Under the pieces are notes generated by a model. It did not search any database. It was not told where the DNA came from and saw nothing but the letters and a program-made list of their open reading frames with translations. Shown here piece after piece: positions 2,613 to 24,014 of a DNA stretch of 24,430 nt. The position numbers were made by a program, and so were the translations under genes. How positions within the stretch are numbered: position 1 is the stretch's first letter; every line of letters begins with the position of its first letter. Source of the DNA: Promethearchaeota archaeon (GTDB taxonomy: Archaea > Asgardarchaeota > Lokiarchaeia > Sigyniarchaeales > SOKP01); contig JAEOTA010000087.1 of the NCBI GenBank assembly GCA_016840085.1, positions 1-24,430 on the forward strand, in the 5' to 3' direction.

Positions 2613-2864
2613 ATGGTATTATGTGAGAAAAATATAAAGAATTTAATAACTTTTTCGAAAGAAAATTTTAATGCTAAAATACGTGATAATCCTGAAGATT
2701 CTAAACAATTAAAAAATAAATTGATAAGAGATGATATTAAAGATTTATACAATTTATATTATTATCAGGCTCACTATTATAAATTAGCATTTTGTACAAG
2801 AAAAATAACATTGTACGGACTTCTTTTTATTCCTTTGGTTTTAATATTTATGATAATATTATAA
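2613..2864 (+). CDS. Small membrane protein with a C-terminal TM helix
   Basis: Strong SD GGAGGTGAT at 2598-2606 upstream of the ATG; hydrophobic C-terminus ITLYGLLFIPLVLIFMIIL. Confidence 0.55.
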   Translation: MVLCEKNIKNLITFSKENFNAKIRDNPEDSKQLKNKLIRDDIKDLYNLYYYQAHYYKLAFCTRKITLYGLLFIPLVLIFMIIL

Positions 2865-2887: not shown

Positions 2888-3298
2888 GTGAGAATATTGA
2901 TTGAAAAAGAATTTGGTTTTATTTACTTGGAAAAGAATGAAATTGCATATTATATAGCTAATTTGTGGGGAGGAGAATTGAGTATCCAATCTATCAAGGA
3001 CAAAAAATATTCTAATGATGATATTGAAAAATTTCATCTTGAATTATGGAAATTGATTCTTAAAAACTGGGATGGTAAAAGCTCATTTCGTTTGACTCTA
3101 AAAGGAAAGACCACAGATCCCATTCTTTCCCAAGCTTGTCATCGATCTGGCATATGGTATAATGATTTACCGAAGGAATTCTCAGTTTTTCGCCCAAAAA
3201 GCTATGCTATTGAATGGAGAAAACAACTTCATCCCTGCAAATTTCATAAAGATAATCAAGAAAATATCAAACCATTTAAAAATATTGGAGAACCATAA
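2888..3298 (+). CDS. Hypothetical protein with BTG/Tob (APRO)-like sequence pattern
   Basis: 136-aa ORF with motifs KNEIA...IEKFHLELWKLI...W...FR...DPILSQACHRSGIWYNDLPKE, collinear with the BTG-family pattern as I recall it. Confidence 0.55.
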   Translation: MRILIEKEFGFIYLEKNEIAYYIANLWGGELSIQSIKDKKYSNDDIEKFHLELWKLILKNWDGKSSFRLTLKGKTTDPILSQACHRSGIWYNDLPKEFSVFRPKSYAIEWRKQLHPCKFHKDNQENIKPFKNIGEP

Positions 3299-3427: not shown

Positions 3428-4789
3428 ATGTTTAGAATGATTGATTTTCTTGATGCATTTAAATCAGCGTTGGACGATAAAGACTATATATATCTTGAAC
3501 CTATGAATAAAAGTGGAGGGTGGGCTGAAATATTTTATGTTTTCAGTCAAGAAGAGAAAGAAGTAAGAGTCGCTAAAGTTTATAAAGAACCATTAGGGCG
3601 TATTAATGAAGATATATACAAATCAGATGCTAAAAAATTAATGAAAATTAAACATGAAAATGTTGTAAAGATTATTGATAAAGGTATTATAGAATATGGT
3701 GACAAAAAAAAATTTTTCCTTATCTTAGAACATATTAGAGGTAAAAATTTTGAAGAAATAGATTCTCGATTATTTTTAGAAAAGCCTTATAATGAAAGAT
3801 TAAACTATTTTGTTCAAACTCTTGAGGGAATTAACGAATTTAGGGAAAATTTCGATTTACACCGTGATTTACATCCTGGAAACATAATGCTTTCAGACGA
3901 GGATATTAATAAAATAAGAAAAATTAAAATTATTGATCCAGGTTCCTCCAGATATTATTATGAACCTGAAGATGAAGATATAGATTTATATTCAATAAAA
4001 AAGGGGCTTCTAAATCTCTTCCTGCGCCCAGAAGAAATAAAGAAAATTAATGAAAGTAAAGTATTAGAAAATTTAGAATTCCCAGAATTTAGAGAAATAA
4101 TCAAGAAACTAAGTATGGAAGAAGAAAGAAAAATCAATTTTGGGCATAAGAATTCTGAGATTAATAAAGAAAAAATCAATTTTCTTTTCCAAGATAGATT
4201 ACACGAGTTAAATAATGGAGAATATCATATAAATATTCCAGATCAAATTAGGATGCTGATTCACATGATTTCAATTGATGCCTTGATAGCTAACAGATCA
4301 CTCGATCTTGAAATAGTGTTCAATAATTTTGAGGATTATTTAAAACCACCCGGCTGTACTTTTGGTAGAGAAATTGAGCGAAATTTACACGGATTATTTG
4401 TATCTTGTGGTCCAGATCCATATTCGGATAATTATGTGGGATATGTTCAATTATACCGGAATGGAATGATAGAAGCTATTGACAGTTCTCTTTTAAAACC
4501 TACTACACACCTTCATGGTAGGCATTATAATAAGCCCGTAAGAAAACTTGGTATGTGGTATTTGGAAAAAAATATTATCCGTTCATGCGTGATGTATCTA
4601 AAAACTTTAGAAAAAATAGGAGCTAGTTTACCTATTTTTCTCTATCTCTCATTTACTCATTTAAGAGACTATAAAATTTCATTAGTTCCTTATGAAGATT
4701 CATTTATCAGCAAAGACTCGGATGCACCTAAGAGAGATGAGATTCTACTTCCGAGAATAAAAATTGATAGTTTTGAGGTTGATTTTTGA
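3428..4789 (+). CDS. Hanks-type Ser/Thr protein kinase fused to a domain like the C-terminal domain of AlbA_2/Schlafen-type proteins; interrupted by in-frame TGA
   Basis: Kinase motifs SGGWAEIF, VAKVYK, HENVVKI, HRDLHPGNIML, KIIDPG, DLYS. Second domain has GYVQLYRNGMIEA, PIFLYLSF, EILLP and continues past the TGA in frame as KKLKPSFDIFWNAF. Confidence 0.8.
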   Translation: MFRMIDFLDAFKSALDDKDYIYLEPMNKSGGWAEIFYVFSQEEKEVRVAKVYKEPLGRINEDIYKSDAKKLMKIKHENVVKIIDKGIIEYGDKKKFFLILEHIRGKNFEEIDSRLFLEKPYNERLNYFVQTLEGINEFRENFDLHRDLHPGNIMLSDEDINKIRKIKIIDPGSSRYYYEPEDEDIDLYSIKKGLLNLFLRPEEIKKINESKVLENLEFPEFREIIKKLSMEEERKINFGHKNSEINKEKINFLFQDRLHELNNGEYHINIPDQIRMLIHMISIDALIANRSLDLEIVFNNFEDYLKPPGCTFGREIERNLHGLFVSCGPDPYSDNYVGYVQLYRNGMIEAIDSSLLKPTTHLHGRHYNKPVRKLGMWYLEKNIIRSCVMYLKTLEKIGASLPIFLYLSFTHLRDYKISLVPYEDSFISKDSDAPKRDEILLPRIKIDSFEVDF

Positions 4790-5266
4790 AAAAAATTAAA
4801 ACCTTCTTTTGATATATTTTGGAATGCGTTTAATCAGCCAGGTTCAAGAAATTATGAAGAAATAGCAGAAAAGTATGTAGGTTTTGTAATTGAGGTAATG
4901 AGAAAAACTGAAATTTTAGGAAAATATGAAAATTTACCCCCAACAAATATTTATTCTGGAAGAATTAGTCAGGAACCTTATATTACATCTAAGCAAAAGA
5001 ACTATCAAAAATTTTATAATACCTTAAAGGATATTTCTAATGAAAATCGTGTTAATGCTGTATATATTCAAATAAAAGAGCTACAATATAATATTGAAAA
5101 GGATTTCAATATGATTTTCAATAGTAATTGGGGAATAAAATTCTTCCGTAATGCTTTTTGGGAATTAGAAATTCGTAGTACTACATTTAGCATTCATAAT
5201 CAAAAAACTCATAAAGCTATATTTCTACGGGAGTTAAAAAAATTGATGAGAAGACACTTACATTGA
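4790..5266 (+). CDS. In-frame continuation of the kinase gene after the TGA (track ORF 4898..5266)
   Basis: Same frame as 3428..4789, with no other stop between 4790 and 5263. Confidence 0.6.
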   Translation, partial: KKLKPSFDIFWNAFNQPGSRNYEEIAEKYVGFVIEVMRKTEILGKYENLPPTNIYSGRISQEPYITSKQKNYQKFYNTLKDISNENRVNAVYIQIKELQYNIEKDFNMIFNSNWGIKFFRNAFWELEIRSTTFSIHNQKTHKAIFLRELKKLMRRHLH

Positions 5267-6684
5267 ATGGATTTAATATTTATACTCAAGATTTGGAGTA
5301 TCCAAAACTATTAAATGCTATGAAAAAAAAGTATGGACAAGAAATTGAAATCAATGGTATAAAATATTTGCAAATTCAACACTCTAATATTTATGCTCAT
5401 TCTCCTACTAATCATTTACTCGTATCTTTCAGACTCAAATGGGAAACCTACACTGATGAAATGTTTAATGAGCTTCAAAACAATATGGAAACTATTTTTA
5501 ACTCGATAAAAGATTATAATAAAATTTATTATTTCAATACGAATTTATTTGTTGATTTTCAAATCTCATCATTCATAGATGATTATATTTCATCAGAATT
5601 AATGGATGAGGATTTAAATGTCGGTCCTGCATATAGAATTCAAAGGACAGGATTTTTTATTACATTTATCTCTTTTGTTCATAAAAACTATTCTGAAATT
5701 ATTAGTAAAGCGATAAAAAGTTTCTTAGACAACGAATTTGCTAATCTTATGGGAAAAAATGCTTTAAATGTGAATGAAATTAAGTTACATCACTTGTCAG
5801 AGGGAAATTTTAAAAATTTAGAAGGTTATATGTCTGTGGAATTATTACCTTTTCTCTCCCGACAAATCTCTAATTATAATATTAATATTGTCCATTTATT
5901 GCAAACTTTTCAGAGGATTTTGTTTGATATGCAAAATTCTATTGAGAATTATGATTATTCAGCCCTAATTAATTTAGAGAGATATTTTAATGAAATCAGA
6001 AATAATTTAGATGCAAAATTTGGATTGTTTCCGAATATAGAATATGGAGATCTCTTTTTTACTAAAAATCAAACTAAACTAAATCAAGAAAGTCATCTAT
6101 ATAAAGAAAATTTGTTAAAACTGCATAAAGTCTATTATCAGGATTTTCAATTAAATCGAAATAATTTAAAAAAAGAATTAAATAGAATTATGAGTATTAT
6201 TAGATATCTGGTAAATCAGAAAAGAGAGACTATAAAAAAATATTCTAAATTGGAATTAGAGCAAAAATTAGGTAATATATCTAAAGAGGAGGAATTCAGA
6301 CAACTATTAAAAGAAATACTTGAAGACTTAGGGTTTCAAGATATAGAGCTCACTCATGGAACAGAGGAAATGGGTAAAGATATTGTTTTTTCGAATAGGA
6401 ATAAGTTTAAAATGAAAGAATGGAATGCTATAGTAGCCAAGGTTGGGAAAATAAATACAGATGATGCAAGAAGATTACCAGATAAAATAAAATTGATAAT
6501 TTATCAAGTTGAGGAAGCTTATGATTTCAAATATCAAGATGATAAAGGTAGTAGACATCCTATTACGAGAGTCTTTATTGCGACGAATGAAAGTATTACG
6601 AAAGATGCCAAAAAAAGAATACGTAAAAAATTAAAAGGGAATGTATTTTTTATTGAAAAAGATACATTCTTAGATTTATGTTGA
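5263..6684 (+). CDS. Protein with C-terminal Mrr-like (type IV-like) PD-(D/E)xK restriction endonuclease domain; probably the 3' part of the kinase gene
   Basis: C-terminal EEFRQLLKEILEDLGFQDIELTHGTEEMGKDIVF...AIVAKVG...VFIATNESITKDAK. The frame is open from 5215; TTG start without a clear SD. Confidence 0.7.
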   Translation: MNGFNIYTQDLEYPKLLNAMKKKYGQEIEINGIKYLQIQHSNIYAHSPTNHLLVSFRLKWETYTDEMFNELQNNMETIFNSIKDYNKIYYFNTNLFVDFQISSFIDDYISSELMDEDLNVGPAYRIQRTGFFITFISFVHKNYSEIISKAIKSFLDNEFANLMGKNALNVNEIKLHHLSEGNFKNLEGYMSVELLPFLSRQISNYNINIVHLLQTFQRILFDMQNSIENYDYSALINLERYFNEIRNNLDAKFGLFPNIEYGDLFFTKNQTKLNQESHLYKENLLKLHKVYYQDFQLNRNNLKKELNRIMSIIRYLVNQKRETIKKYSKLELEQKLGNISKEEEFRQLLKEILEDLGFQDIELTHGTEEMGKDIVFSNRNKFKMKEWNAIVAKVGKINTDDARRLPDKIKLIIYQVEEAYDFKYQDDKGSRHPITRVFIATNESITKDAKKRIRKKLKGNVFFIEKDTFLDLC

Positions 6685-7065: not shown

Positions 7066-7866
7066 TTAAAATTGATTTAATTTTAATCTTTTCTTTATTG
7101 AATCTTTATATCTAATTTTATTATAGTTTTTAGTCCATTGAAGAATTTTCATCAAATTCTCCTTTTTTTTTAATTCTCTCGCATTGTCATAAAACCTACA
7201 TTCTTCAATATGCACATTTTTTGCAGGAATATAATTTATAATTCCCAACCAAAAAGATTCTGTTATATAATGATATAAATCATTTATTAGTGGTCTAGGA
7301 TCAAAATCTAATAAAGGTTCTGATGAAATTGAATTTTTGAAACCATTTTTGTAAGTAAAAATTAATGAATCTTTACGTTCACTGTAGGATGGGGCTTTTG
7401 GTTCCCAAAATCTAAGTAAATTATTATTAATTGAACCTATAGTAAAACGAAATTGTATTTGTTGCTTATATTTAGAAAATTCATGACAAATTTTTTTAAT
7501 AACAAACAAAGATGGTTTAGTGGTAATTAATACTTCGTTCCCTTTCATCAGAATATTTTCAAGAGTCTTCAAACATGCAGATAAAAAAGGTTCAAATGGA
7601 AATATATCATGAGTTGTAGGAAACATAAACCTACCATTACGAAGTCTATAAATTTTTCTTACCGCCTTTTCATTAATTTCCATAATAGACCAATTTTTAT
7701 GATTTTTCCTACCAAATCTTATTGCCATAAATTTAGCATAGCAATACTTACAATTATAAAAACACCCATTGATACAATTTACATTATAATCTGCCCATTC
7801 TTTTGTTCCTGAGGGGATTTCTTTTTTAATTCTCTCCCCTTTATTCATTTTAATGACAACAAACAA
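7066..7866 (-). CDS. Radical SAM protein (SPL-like / DUF5131-related)
   Basis: N-terminal GTKEWA..NVNCINGCFYNCKYCYA (CxxxCxxC), MFPTTHD, VLITTKP, FRFTIGS, FWEPKAP, SISSEPLLD. The real start may be ATG 7848. Confidence 0.85.
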   Translation of the reverse strand: MFVVIKMNKGERIKKEIPSGTKEWADYNVNCINGCFYNCKYCYAKFMAIRFGRKNHKNWSIMEINEKAVRKIYRLRNGRFMFPTTHDIFPFEPFLSACLKTLENILMKGNEVLITTKPSLFVIKKICHEFSKYKQQIQFRFTIGSINNNLLRFWEPKAPSYSERKDSLIFTYKNGFKNSISSEPLLDFDPRPLINDLYHYITESFWLGIINYIPAKNVHIEECRFYDNARELKKKENLMKILQWTKNYNKIRYKDSIKKRLKLNQF

Positions 7867-7879
7867 TGATTATTTTCAA

Positions 7880-8746
7880 TTAAAAATTGTTGAAGGGATT
7901 TTCGGTTGAGAAAAATTGATTACCTTTAATATATTTTTCTTTACCATCTTTTCTAATTAAAATTATATCACTTTCAGTTAACATCTTTGAATCTATATCA
8001 CTAAAATCAATATGCGCCTTGATGTTTTTTATCAAATAATAACATAAATGCACCATTATATTTTGATTAGCTTGATAAACTATAATTTTAAACTGTTTAA
8101 CATCAAAAAGATTAAGGCACTTTTTAAAAATTAAAACGGGTAATACGTATGCAATCTTTTGATATTGTCGAACATTATTATCGGGTGATAATAACCATTT
8201 AATTTCTTTACGATTATTTTTTCTAAAGAGACTTTTCAAAGCATTTTCAAAAATCGAAATATCTCTTCCTCTGTGACCATTAATCGTTATGAAAAATAGA
8301 AATCCTCTACCGGCTTTAAGAAAAGCTCCTTGTTTTTTAATGATTTTATTAAATACTTCAATTCTTTCAATTCTTTTTTCTTTATTCTTATTATTAAATT
8401 GATATATAAATGTTCCTAAAAAATCAAAGTTTATTATATCAAAAGGATAATCAATTCTAGGATCATTTGAACAAATTAGTTTTATAACATCGCTATTGAC
8501 CAATCTCGTCTTAGAGTCTAACTTATAAGCATGGATATTTTTGATTAATTCAGGAACTAAGGATTTATTATACTCGACCGTCAATATATCTTGAATATAT
8601 GAATTCCAATCAAGAATATCACTAAAATCTTTTCCTGTTAAACCAAAATATCTACATTTTTTATTATAATCCCTACAAAATTGCTTAATAAGTGGTAAAT
8701 TGTATTTAGTTCTGACTTTTTTTTTTACTATATTGTTATAACTCAT
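7880..8746 (-). CDS. Putative SAM-dependent methyltransferase-fold protein
   Basis: Rossmann-like series of motifs: RYFGLTG (motif I-like), LTVEYN (acidic motif II), LVNSDV (motif III), PFDIINFDFLG (motif IV), GFLFFIT. Confidence 0.6.
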   Translation of the reverse strand: MSYNNIVKKKVRTKYNLPLIKQFCRDYNKKCRYFGLTGKDFSDILDWNSYIQDILTVEYNKSLVPELIKNIHAYKLDSKTRLVNSDVIKLICSNDPRIDYPFDIINFDFLGTFIYQFNNKNKEKRIERIEVFNKIIKKQGAFLKAGRGFLFFITINGHRGRDISIFENALKSLFRKNNRKEIKWLLSPDNNVRQYQKIAYVLPVLIFKKCLNLFDVKQFKIIVYQANQNIMVHLCYYLIKNIKAHIDFSDIDSKMLTESDIILIRKDGKEKYIKGNQFFSTENPFNNF

Positions 8747-8755
8747 TGGTTTTTT

Positions 8756-10612
8756 TTATACTATTGTTTTTTTTATACTATTAATTATATTGTCTAATAT
8801 TGAAATTAAATCATCAACTGATATTTTTTTCAAAATTGGAGCTTTTTTTCTTAAAAATAAATTTTTATTCTTGATAATGAATTCAAATTTTTTTATCAGT
8901 AAATCTATAATATCTGGCTTTTCTGCTTCTTGAGGTATTTTTGTCTTTACATCCTTCTTAATTGGTTCTAGCTTTTCTACTTCCTGAGATGTTTCTGTCT
9001 TTACAGCCTTCTTAATTGGTTCTAGCTTTTCTACTTCCTGAGATGTTTCTATCTTTACAGCCTTCTTAATTGGCTCTGGCTTTATAGATTCTTTCTTTAA
9101 ATCACTCCCATTTTCAGTACTTCTTTCTCTATCCTTATCTATATAGTTATGAGATTTTTGGTTATATTTTTTACAAATTTTAAGTTGGTGTGTACAATCT
9201 TTCTTATGTTTTTTGAAAATTGTTTCAGCCTTCTTCAAAAGATTTATTGTATCTTCATATCTTTTATTTTCATATAATTCTAAAGCATTACTTAATAAAT
9301 CTTCTCCATTGTCAATCTCATCTTTTTTATTCCTTCTTTTCTTCTTACTAATTTCACCCGCTCGATCTCTAACTTCTTTACATAAGGTTTCTATTTGTCT
9401 TATTATCTGTTCTTTAACCTTTTCCCATCCATATGTATATTGGAAATCTATCCGATTTGTTTGTGGTAAAATTTGAATTTTATCACGAAAATATTTTGTT
9501 CTGGGCTTAACGATATGACAATCTCCAAAAAAGTGAAGAAAACGTGTATTATATTTTCTAATATAACCTCTTACAGCATTTCTAGACATAATTTCAACAT
9601 TTTTATGCCTTATCGCCATACCCTCTAAAAATCCTTGATCCGATTCAAACCCTTTATTTGATGATCCAATTCTATGCAGATGAGGATTAATTGCAACCCA
9701 CATTTTTGCCACAATATCTCTTTTACCCTTAATTTCCAAGTAAATATTGTAAGTCTTTGGATTTTCTAAAGTTATTTTAGGTACAGTTCTAAACAATTGA
9801 GTACCATTAAAAAAAACTTTAATTTTATGGTTAACCCAACCATTTAAAAATTTATCAATTTCCCCTTTATGTGACCAATCAGGAGGAAAATCTATAGGTA
9901 ATATACTACAAAGTTCTCTTAGAAACTCTCCACTTTCAATCTTTTCCAAAACATCATCTCTTAGATTTACTAATTGTATATTAGTAAAATGATCATTAAT
10001 TTCATCTTTCGGAACAGCTACTTTTCTTAATTTAAATTTAGTTACGTTTTTGACTAATAAACCTTCTTTTTCTTCATTTCTCTGTTTAGTTGAATTAATC
10101 CATTCTTCTATTGGCAATTCTGCTTCAATGTAATAGTGCATACCTTTTTTTTTTGATAAAATTCTTATTTTTTCACAGATTTTTCCACCAGCATATAATC
10201 CTATGCCCAATTCGCCAATATAATCATCTTCGTGCGTTTTATCACCATCAAACATTATAAGTCCAAGTAACAATTTTTCTTCATCCATTCCAGTACCTTC
10301 ATCATAAAAAGATATAATAGGTTCTTCTTTTTGATACCAAATTGTTATTTTCTGAATTTCGCTCCCTGAATCAACGGCATTACTTATATATTCTCTAAAC
10401 ATATGAATTGGATCTTGGTAAGTCCCTCCAACAATAACATCTAATGCACCTTTTCCTACTTGGATAAAATCTTTAATGATTATATCTTCATTGATTTTTG
10501 AATTTTTGATAAGATTTTTTATATCTTCGTCTATGAAAAAATCAATTTTTTCTTTAATTTGAGAATGTTCATTTAATTCATTTTCATTTTTCCAAATTTC
10601 TCTCATTATCAT
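8756..10612 (-). CDS. GHKL (Hsp90/MutL/MORC-like, HATPase_c_3) ATPase
   Basis: Bergerat motifs FREYISNAVDS (N box), DEGTGM (G1), IGELGIGL (G2) and HFTNIQL. These are followed by an S5-like region, a TPR-like hairpin and a charged tail. Confidence 0.85.
   Translation of the reverse strand: MIMREIWKNENELNEHSQIKEKIDFFIDEDIKNLIKNSKINEDIIIKDFIQVGKGALDVIVGGTYQDPIHMFREYISNAVDSGSEIQKITIWYQKEEPIISFYDEGTGMDEEKLLLGLIMFDGDKTHEDDYIGELGIGLYAGGKICEKIRILSKKKGMHYYIEAELPIEEWINSTKQRNEEKEGLLVKNVTKFKLRKVAVPKDEINDHFTNIQLVNLRDDVLEKIESGEFLRELCSILPIDFPPDWSHKGEIDKFLNGWVNHKIKVFFNGTQLFRTVPKITLENPKTYNIYLEIKGKRDIVAKMWVAINPHLHRIGSSNKGFESDQGFLEGMAIRHKNVEIMSRNAVRGYIRKYNTRFLHFFGDCHIVKPRTKYFRDKIQILPQTNRIDFQYTYGWEKVKEQIIRQIETLCKEVRDRAGEISKKKRRNKKDEIDNGEDLLSNALELYENKRYEDTINLLKKAETIFKKHKKDCTHQLKICKKYNQKSHNYIDKDRERSTENGSDLKKESIKPEPIKKAVKIETSQEVEKLEPIKKAVKTETSQEVEKLEPIKKDVKTKIPQEAEKPDIIDLLIKKFEFIIKNKNLFLRKKAPILKKISVDDLISILDNIINSIKKTIV
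8915..9076 (-). repeat. Three tandem 54-bp (18-aa) repeats inside the GHKL ATPase tail
   Basis: EPIKKAVKIETSQEVEKL / EPIKKAVKTETSQEVEKL / EPIKKDVKTKIPQEAEKP. Confidence 0.9.
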
Positions 10613-11165
10613 CCTTCTCCTTAAAAAAATTTTGTAGAACTTCTTTTATATTTGGATTAAGTAAATAGATACCATTATTTATATACCAAATTGGTTCAAA
10701 ATTTAAAGAATTCCATTTTCTTGTCATTCCAGCAACCAATCCAGCAAGTTTTTTTGTCAATCCTTCTTCATTTTTTAACATTTTCTTTCTTAGAAGACTA
10801 TCTACTAGTTTTTCTCTTGAAATTTGTTTATTTTCATACACCTTAATGATTATTTCTTTTTGTCTTTCAGATAATTTTATCCAAAACACCTTAAAAGATG
10901 AAATATCCCATTTTTTATTGAAAAGATAAGAATGTTTATTATTATCGTAAGAAAAACATGTTAAGTCAACATATAACTCTAATTCTCTTAATAAAGGCAG
11001 TAATTTTTCTGTAAAGTCATTAAGACTAATACTTTCTTTTAAAGGTAATGTTCTACCATTTATTCCTAGTTGGATTACTTTAGTATCTTGAATTATGGGA
11101 ATAAAAAAACTCTTTTCTATAGATTTAGATAATGCATTTTTATAAACTATATTTCTTCCAGACAA
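10584..11165 (-). CDS. Hypothetical protein with probable C-terminal winged-helix domain
   Basis: LSERQKEIIIKVYENKQISREKLVDSL...KKLAGLVAGMTRKW...IYLLNP pattern; overlaps the GHKL start by 29 bp. Confidence 0.6.
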   Translation of the reverse strand: MSGRNIVYKNALSKSIEKSFFIPIIQDTKVIQLGINGRTLPLKESISLNDFTEKLLPLLRELELYVDLTCFSYDNNKHSYLFNKKWDISSFKVFWIKLSERQKEIIIKVYENKQISREKLVDSLLRKKMLKNEEGLTKKLAGLVAGMTRKWNSLNFEPIWYINNGIYLLNPNIKEVLQNFFKEKDDNERNLEK

Positions 11166-23351: not shown

Positions 23352-24014
23352 ATGAAAAAAAGAAATGTTTATTTTATTGGAGTTTTAACTTTTTTATCAC
23401 TAATCCAATTATTACTGGTTAACGCTGAAGAAACCATATCATTGCCAACCTACACATACAGAGATCATAATTTTAAAATGGGAAATTTTGATTGTTATGT
23501 CTGGGAGTTTTCTGCTTCCACTGATGATATTTTAGTTCTTGCTTTAACTCAAAGACAGTATGATGCATTCTACAATATTTTTTTATCAGAATACACCGCG
23601 ATCCTTAATAAGCACAGCGGATTTCAAGACTCAGGACGGTGGCGACCACCTAGCTCTAGTACATGGCATTTTCTCTATATCAATAGAGGGTATTCGACTA
23701 CTTCACTCACCATAAGCGACAATGTCCAGATAAATTATTATTTTCCTTGGATTCCATTAATATTGGGATTATTAATAGGCGTTCCATTACTAGCAATTGC
23801 TGTATATTTTACGCTTAAAAAAGTCAAGCAAAGAAAAGAATCGCTTATAAGACCGCCAGAACCATCAATTAAATCACCACTGCCCTCTCCATCTATTCAA
23901 TCGTATCAGCAATCTCAGCAATCCATTAAATTTGAATTTTGCCCTAAATGCGGAACAAAGATTACTATAGGGAAGTTCTGTACAAATTGCGGTTTTGATA
24001 TGAGTAAATTATAA
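23352..24014 (+). CDS. Type I membrane protein: signal peptide, GOLD-like beta-sandwich, TM helix, P/Q-rich linker, C-terminal double zinc ribbon
   Basis: N-terminal signal ending VNA; SGRWRPPSSSTWHFLYIN; TM WIPLILGLLIGVPLLAIAVYF; CPKC...CTNC. Confidence 0.8.
   Translation: MKKRNVYFIGVLTFLSLIQLLLVNAEETISLPTYTYRDHNFKMGNFDCYVWEFSASTDDILVLALTQRQYDAFYNIFLSEYTAILNKHSGFQDSGRWRPPSSSTWHFLYINRGYSTTSLTISDNVQINYYFPWIPLILGLLIGVPLLAIAVYFTLKKVKQRKESLIRPPEPSIKSPLPSPSIQSYQQSQQSIKFEFCPKCGTKITIGKFCTNCGFDMSKL

Follow-up and report, generated by a model that had tools for sequence, protein, structure and literature searches.

To our knowledge, the BTG fold has been treated as restricted to eukaryotes. A SCOP-based study lists the fold as a marker of Opisthokonta (PMC9541633), and Dictyostelium also possesses it (PMC2837350). 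A literature search of incomplete coverage returned no description of prokaryotic or viral BTG domains, and the fold goes unmentioned in the main texts of structure-based Asgard surveys and of an archaeal fold survey. The closest described systems are the eukaryotic BTG/Tob (APRO) domains of PF07742, for which human Tob1 (5ci9, 2d5r) and BTG2 (3dju) serve as references. Binding of the CAF1 deadenylase requires Tyr65, Trp103, and Asp105 of BTG2, or Trp93 and Asp95 of Tob (PMC2588512, PMC4656213), and CAF1 is dampened by BTG2 in vitro (PMC2588512). The fold can also bind RNA, since FOG-3 of Caenorhabditis elegans does so directly (PMC6066285).

The stretch of DNA analyzed here, termed the window, comprises 24,430 nucleotides of Promethearchaeota archaeon (assembly GCA_016840085.1, contig JAEOTA010000087.1, positions 1 to 24,430, forward strand). 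The first-pass annotation placed a possible BTG/Tob homolog at 2888–3298 on the forward strand, and this open reading frame and all the sequence blocks quoted for it are present. The GTG start at 2888, which adds three codons, is probably not the true one, as the TTG at 2897 is in register with the ATG, GTG, and TTG starts of homologs. The sequence from this start probably encodes a product of 133 residues with a pI of 9.1 (residue numbers are counted from 2888 throughout; coordinates are collected in Table 1). Comparison with ten homologs gives a dN/dS of 0.08–0.24, which shows a real gene maintained by purifying selection. A word-seeded search found 18 relatives at 60–79% identity, and profile searching brought the total to 24 clusters, several of which are fragments. 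For one homolog (L016:10010) the start codon appears to be ATA, which aligns with the ATG of other members; the public 113-residue call is therefore probably too short. A promoter scan stayed at chance level, and no longer fused forms of the protein were found, which is weak evidence.

Table 1. Coordinates of the BTG-like gene, its domain features, and neighboring genes in the window.
Feature	Position	Strand	Basis
83-aa ORF, hydrophobic C-terminus, upstream of the BTG-like gene	2613..2864	+	
BTG/Tob-fold gene, basic 133-aa product (probable length)	2897..3298	+	Homolog starts, dN/dS, model
Extra N-terminal beta-hairpin, residues 5-13	2900..2926	+	DSSP of model; conserved in family
BTG (APRO) domain core, residues 14-120	2927..3247	+	
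Shortened Box A	3068..3097	+	HMM alignment to Tob1, column counts
Altered Box B	3167..3199	+	HMM alignment to Tob1, column counts
Family-specific C-terminal strands, conserved IEWRxQxHPC motif, terminal helix	3206..3277	+	Family conservation, model
Ser/Thr kinase-domain ORF, downstream of the BTG-like gene	3428..4789	+	
Radical SAM/DUF5131-like gene of the island	7066..7866	-	54% identity to L049, L053 ORFs

The archaeal protein belongs genuinely to the BTG/Tob superfamily, though as a highly divergent member, and its homology to BTG is held with high confidence. The predicted model (pLDDT 92) matches the BTG fold, a helical bundle with a small antiparallel sheet, among solved structures that include Tob and BTG2, which supports the fold first proposed. 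The N-terminal hairpin lies outside the range aligned with these two, where alignments begin at residues 14–16. Of the checks proposed alongside the first annotation, the structural one with Foldseek gives a match at only E 2e-3 and the Pfam BTG profile falls short, the best family members reaching about 13–15 bits (E 0.015–0.1) under a curated cut-off of 23 bits. The full window protein matches nothing in Pfam, and PDB phmmer and NCBIfam searches were likewise empty. Matches to PF07742 across the phylum are all below the cut-off, and most are either broken by stops or embedded in long, unrelated ORFs. No match to the archaeal family came from tblastn against phage and plasmid collections or from a motif scan of IMG/VR, and none from a structure search of BFVD. 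Profile matches to phosphoserine aminotransferase and to the 624-residue repeat protein P0021 were rejected, as the structure search gives them no support. A profile link does join the archaeal family to the phage family phrog_8937 over 80 columns (HHalign 94.1%, E 1.3e-7; reversed alignment 0.1%, best of 30 block shuffles 20.7%). Since phrog_8937 includes proteins that exceed the Pfam BTG cut-off, this link and the collinear motifs bear out the suspected homology.

A CAF1-adaptor role is unlikely for the archaeal protein, as judged from a sequence (HMM) alignment to Tob1 and not from a per-residue superposition in three dimensions. The nine-residue Box A loop of Tob, which carries HW-x-P-x-x-P in CAF1 adaptors, is missing. 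Residues F67-R68 align with Tob F55-R56 (BTG2 Y65-R66), and the aromatic at the Tyr65/Phe55 position is kept in 15 of 17 members; the column equivalent to Gly64 holds glycine in none of the 17. The L-P-x-E of Box B is invariant. F101 falls on Tob W93, a column that is Phe or Tyr across the 17 members, and the Asp position is Pro or Ser, or Arg, Ser, or Asn if shifted by one, and never Asp. The shortened Box A, the missing W-x-D of Box B, and the resulting doubt over CAF1 binding, all raised in the first reading, are thus upheld. CAF1 (PF04857) was not found in the window genome (98.8% complete), and 301 genomes of the phylum gave one short, stop-interrupted match, in searches where no positive control rang; RNase_T and RRM_1 were not found in the window genome while controls rang.

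The phage family phrog_8937 is of unknown function and is exemplified by a hypothetical protein of Faecalibacterium phage FP_Toutatis. Its profile finds no match at E ≤ 1 in the window's own genome. Phage proteins score higher to eukaryotic BTG than the archaeal protein does. Those encoded at L146:883–1329 and L148:2838–3497 (both on the reverse strand), L120, L076, and L088 lie above the Pfam BTG cut-off at 31–57 bits. Several of them keep the Box B W-x-D/N-P, so that a CAF1-type surface may be largely preserved in some phage members. The phage relatives examined are located in small-ORF or replication regions and offer no functional hint. Two giant-virus MAGs supply further sequences. L184:2707–3081 (reverse strand; IMG/VR GVMAG-M-3300013133-39_000001) encodes a protein of 124 residues that combines a phage-type helix-1 WW, the full eukaryotic Box A loop, and the DY motif, and is a possible link between phrog_8937 and eukaryotic BTG. 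L185:866–1423 (reverse strand; GVMAG-S-1004280-25_000001) is a canonical eukaryote-type BTG gene (E 2e-23 to BTG2), either a viral capture or a mis-binned eukaryotic contig.

G149 is a member of the window genome's family, and its corresponding locus coincides with contig JAUWGH010000004.1 of Promethearchaeota archaeon CSMAG_2237. The window genome is therefore that of a Loki-type archaeon, in line with the Asgard host first suspected. Contamination of the contig was judged unlikely: its composition stays inside the 95th percentile (rank 134 of 161 chunks), and one flanking gene has paralogs at 82–85% on other contigs. Near the end of the window, a 220-residue membrane protein with a C-terminal zinc ribbon (23352–24014) has expanded recently, with paralogs at 82–85% identity on contigs C1 and C10. 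The BTG-like gene is real but very rare, with turnover. Of 400 genomes of the phylum, 3 have it: the window genome with an intact copy, G149 with an in-frame TGA, and G145 with a 25-codon remnant. None of 53 other genomes of the genus carries it. A full scan of 1.84 billion representatives yielded nothing credible beyond the family. Broken copies comprise a nonsense codon in L003, a truncation in L053, and remnants in L011, L017, and L018. A selenocysteine reading of the L003 TGA was rejected because the column is non-Cys, with Arg in most members.

Neighbors of the BTG-like genes vary and, by simple inspection of the loci, are mostly of defense type, and the link to defense islands is one of guilt by association. 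About eight contexts count as independent, since the contigs are mainly short ones and some of the loci nearly duplicate each other. In the window, a kinase, a 122-residue ORF, and an Mrr-domain ORF are consecutive (3428–6684). The suggested link to the Ser/Thr kinase is not supported, since a kinase adjoins none of the other loci examined; the C-terminal half of the window's kinase may resemble the domain often seen trailing AlbA_2 proteins. In CSMAG_2237, a homolog of the upstream 83-residue ORF precedes the broken copy by about 1 kb (52% identity over 64 residues). The window also holds Mrr, a GHKL ATPase, a methyltransferase, and a radical SAM/DUF5131-like gene whose family members in L049 and L053 are placed two genes ahead of the BTG-like gene, where a radical SAM/PDC-M41-like pair and DpnII are nearby. 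The recurring segments are window 7066–11165 (reverse strand), L049:90–2046, and L053:473–2442. In PADLOC the L049 radical SAM homolog matches PDC-M41B and the L049 pair matches PDC-M41A/B; contig C1 of the window genome bears a further copy of such a pair.

Elsewhere, the BTG-like gene directly follows MazF/PemK (L007, 14 bases) or an NYN RNase (L050, 6 bases), or comes after AspBHI/Mrr (L051). An AAA15 ATPase follows it in L001, L005, L015, L016, L018, and L054, the neighbor in L001 being an AAA15-TOPRIM-like protein. A cassette in L016:9404–12400, L005:1263–4369, and L054 consists of a small nucleotidyltransferase, the BTG-like gene, and an AAA15 ATPase fused to Schlafen AlbA_2, and is a candidate for an undescribed Lokiarchaeial defense module; its nucleotidyltransferase weakly matches a PADLOC cyclase (E 9e-7), and its ATPase is split in L005. 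No system model of PADLOC 2.0 matches the BTG-like protein itself at E ≤ 0.01. The island location and the phage relatives agree with the alternative, already entertained in the first reading, of a mobile-element family.

Common ancestry with BTG could be questioned on the grounds that identity to Tob/BTG2 is 14–17%, that no significant sequence match to eukaryotic BTG exists, and that the Foldseek E is only 2e-3. A convergent fold or a model artefact is nevertheless highly improbable given the gap in Z (8.7–10.6 versus 4.6), motif matches that are collinear and independent of the model, and the profile link to phage members passing the Pfam cut-off. The family may have come from a mobile phage or bacterial pool, been back-transferred from eukaryotes or giant viruses, or descended vertically; its distribution makes vertical descent the least likely of the three. 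The trees held a single eukaryote-type sequence, L185, standing in for eukaryotic BTG. The archaeal family forms a compact clade whose stem measures about four changes per site, and two trees pair it with L185 (98/88 and 94/82), both with a long-branch warning. The family is a mosaic, eukaryote-like in having L-P-x-E and in having neither the helix 1-2 insertion nor D-Y-x-P/G-Y, and phage-like in its helix-1 Trp and short Box A. Those eukaryote-type characters are absent from the phage family, identity is 19–25% to L185 versus 11–22% to phage members, and giant-virus MAGs carry BTG genes, all of which, with the two trees, would suit transfer from a eukaryote or giant virus into Lokiarchaeia followed by loss of the CAF1 surface and recycling as island cargo. 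Such a history is rather unlikely, as the family jumps to another long branch once L185 is removed, L185 joins L184 once the family is removed, the data do not reject a clade of L184 and L185 (p-AU 0.29), the family keeps a helix-1 Trp characteristic of phage members, and the comparison had one eukaryote-type sequence only. Vertical descent from the archaeal ancestor of the eukaryotic BTG/Tob proteins, with the gene surviving as a relic after loss from almost all Asgards and perhaps still regulating RNA turnover via a non-CAF1 nuclease, could draw on the host, the eukaryote-like characters, the placement beside L185, and the two loci where the gene directly follows an RNase; the distribution makes it improbable. 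Just as doubtful is a scheme that sees in the Lokiarchaeial family the surviving archaeal sister to eukaryotic BTG/Tob and has the domain passing from virus-host conflict systems, via Asgard defense islands as an RNase regulator, to its role as CAF1 adaptor in eukaryotes. The protein is probably not a eukaryotic-signature protein: that early proposal has weak support in the Asgard host and the unstable placement beside L185, against which stand its presence in 3 of 400 genomes, the defense islands, and the closer phage proteins.

The gene looks like mobile defense-island cargo, not an inherited eukaryote-like trait. It is somewhat favored to be a stand-alone, horizontally shuffled accessory gene in the defense islands of one Lokiarchaeial family, and it is likely an island accessory rather than a core mRNA-decay factor. 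By analogy with known BTG domains, its product would be a non-catalytic binding module. Invariant basic residues of the family are K37, K40, R68, K72, and K121, and family members have a pI of 7.7–9.8 and a net charge of +1 to +13, basic pI being common in this AT-rich genome. The basic surface would most likely contact nucleic acid or else a protein that processes it, and the BTG-like protein would in this way tune a defense or growth-arrest response, with no CAF1-adaptor function. Such a binding role in defense is tentative. Because the neighbors are unrelated to each other, the target would more likely be a conserved host or viral molecule than an adjacent gene product. The gaps of 6–15 bases after the NYN and MazF RNases, the recurrent AAA15 ATPase, and the dampening of CAF1 by BTG2 could instead indicate a dedicated partner, antitoxin or regulator, of the adjacent nuclease, ATPase, or kinase. 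This too is improbable, as the neighbors have unrelated folds while the protein stays 59–79% identical, the window genome's 70%-identical AAA15 ATPase is on another contig with no BTG-like gene beside it, and a kinase is a neighbor only once.

The BTG fold is now seen in giant-virus MAGs, in a large family of phage proteins, and in an archaeal family, so that the origin of a tumor-suppressor domain becomes testable, and mobile or conflict DNA is indicated as its reservoir. An Asgard genome can contain a eukaryote-like fold without having it from the eukaryote ancestor.

Compared with eukaryotic BTG/Tob, the archaeal protein has an extra N-terminal hairpin and a C-terminal motif and is without a PAM2 tail. 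The eukaryotic adaptors act with CAF1 and a poly(A)-binding RRM protein, neither of which was found in the archaeal genome (the CAF1 search lacking a positive control). FOG-3 (5td6) is 10% identical to the archaeal protein. L184 and the archaeal family share a compact domain, a helix-1 Trp, and no helix 1-2 insertion; L184 keeps the full eukaryotic Box A loop that is missing from the archaeal family. The invariant D-Y-x-P, G-Y motif, and helix 1-2 insertion ('DNGD') of phrog_8937 are absent from the archaeal family, which forms its own long-stemmed clade apart from it. Both families have a helix-1 Trp and G-I before Box B, the short Box A loop is shared with most phrog_8937 members, and both consist of small genes that stand alone in mobile DNA. 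The archaeal family is a new, divergent variant of the BTG superfamily, outside the CAF1-adaptor family.
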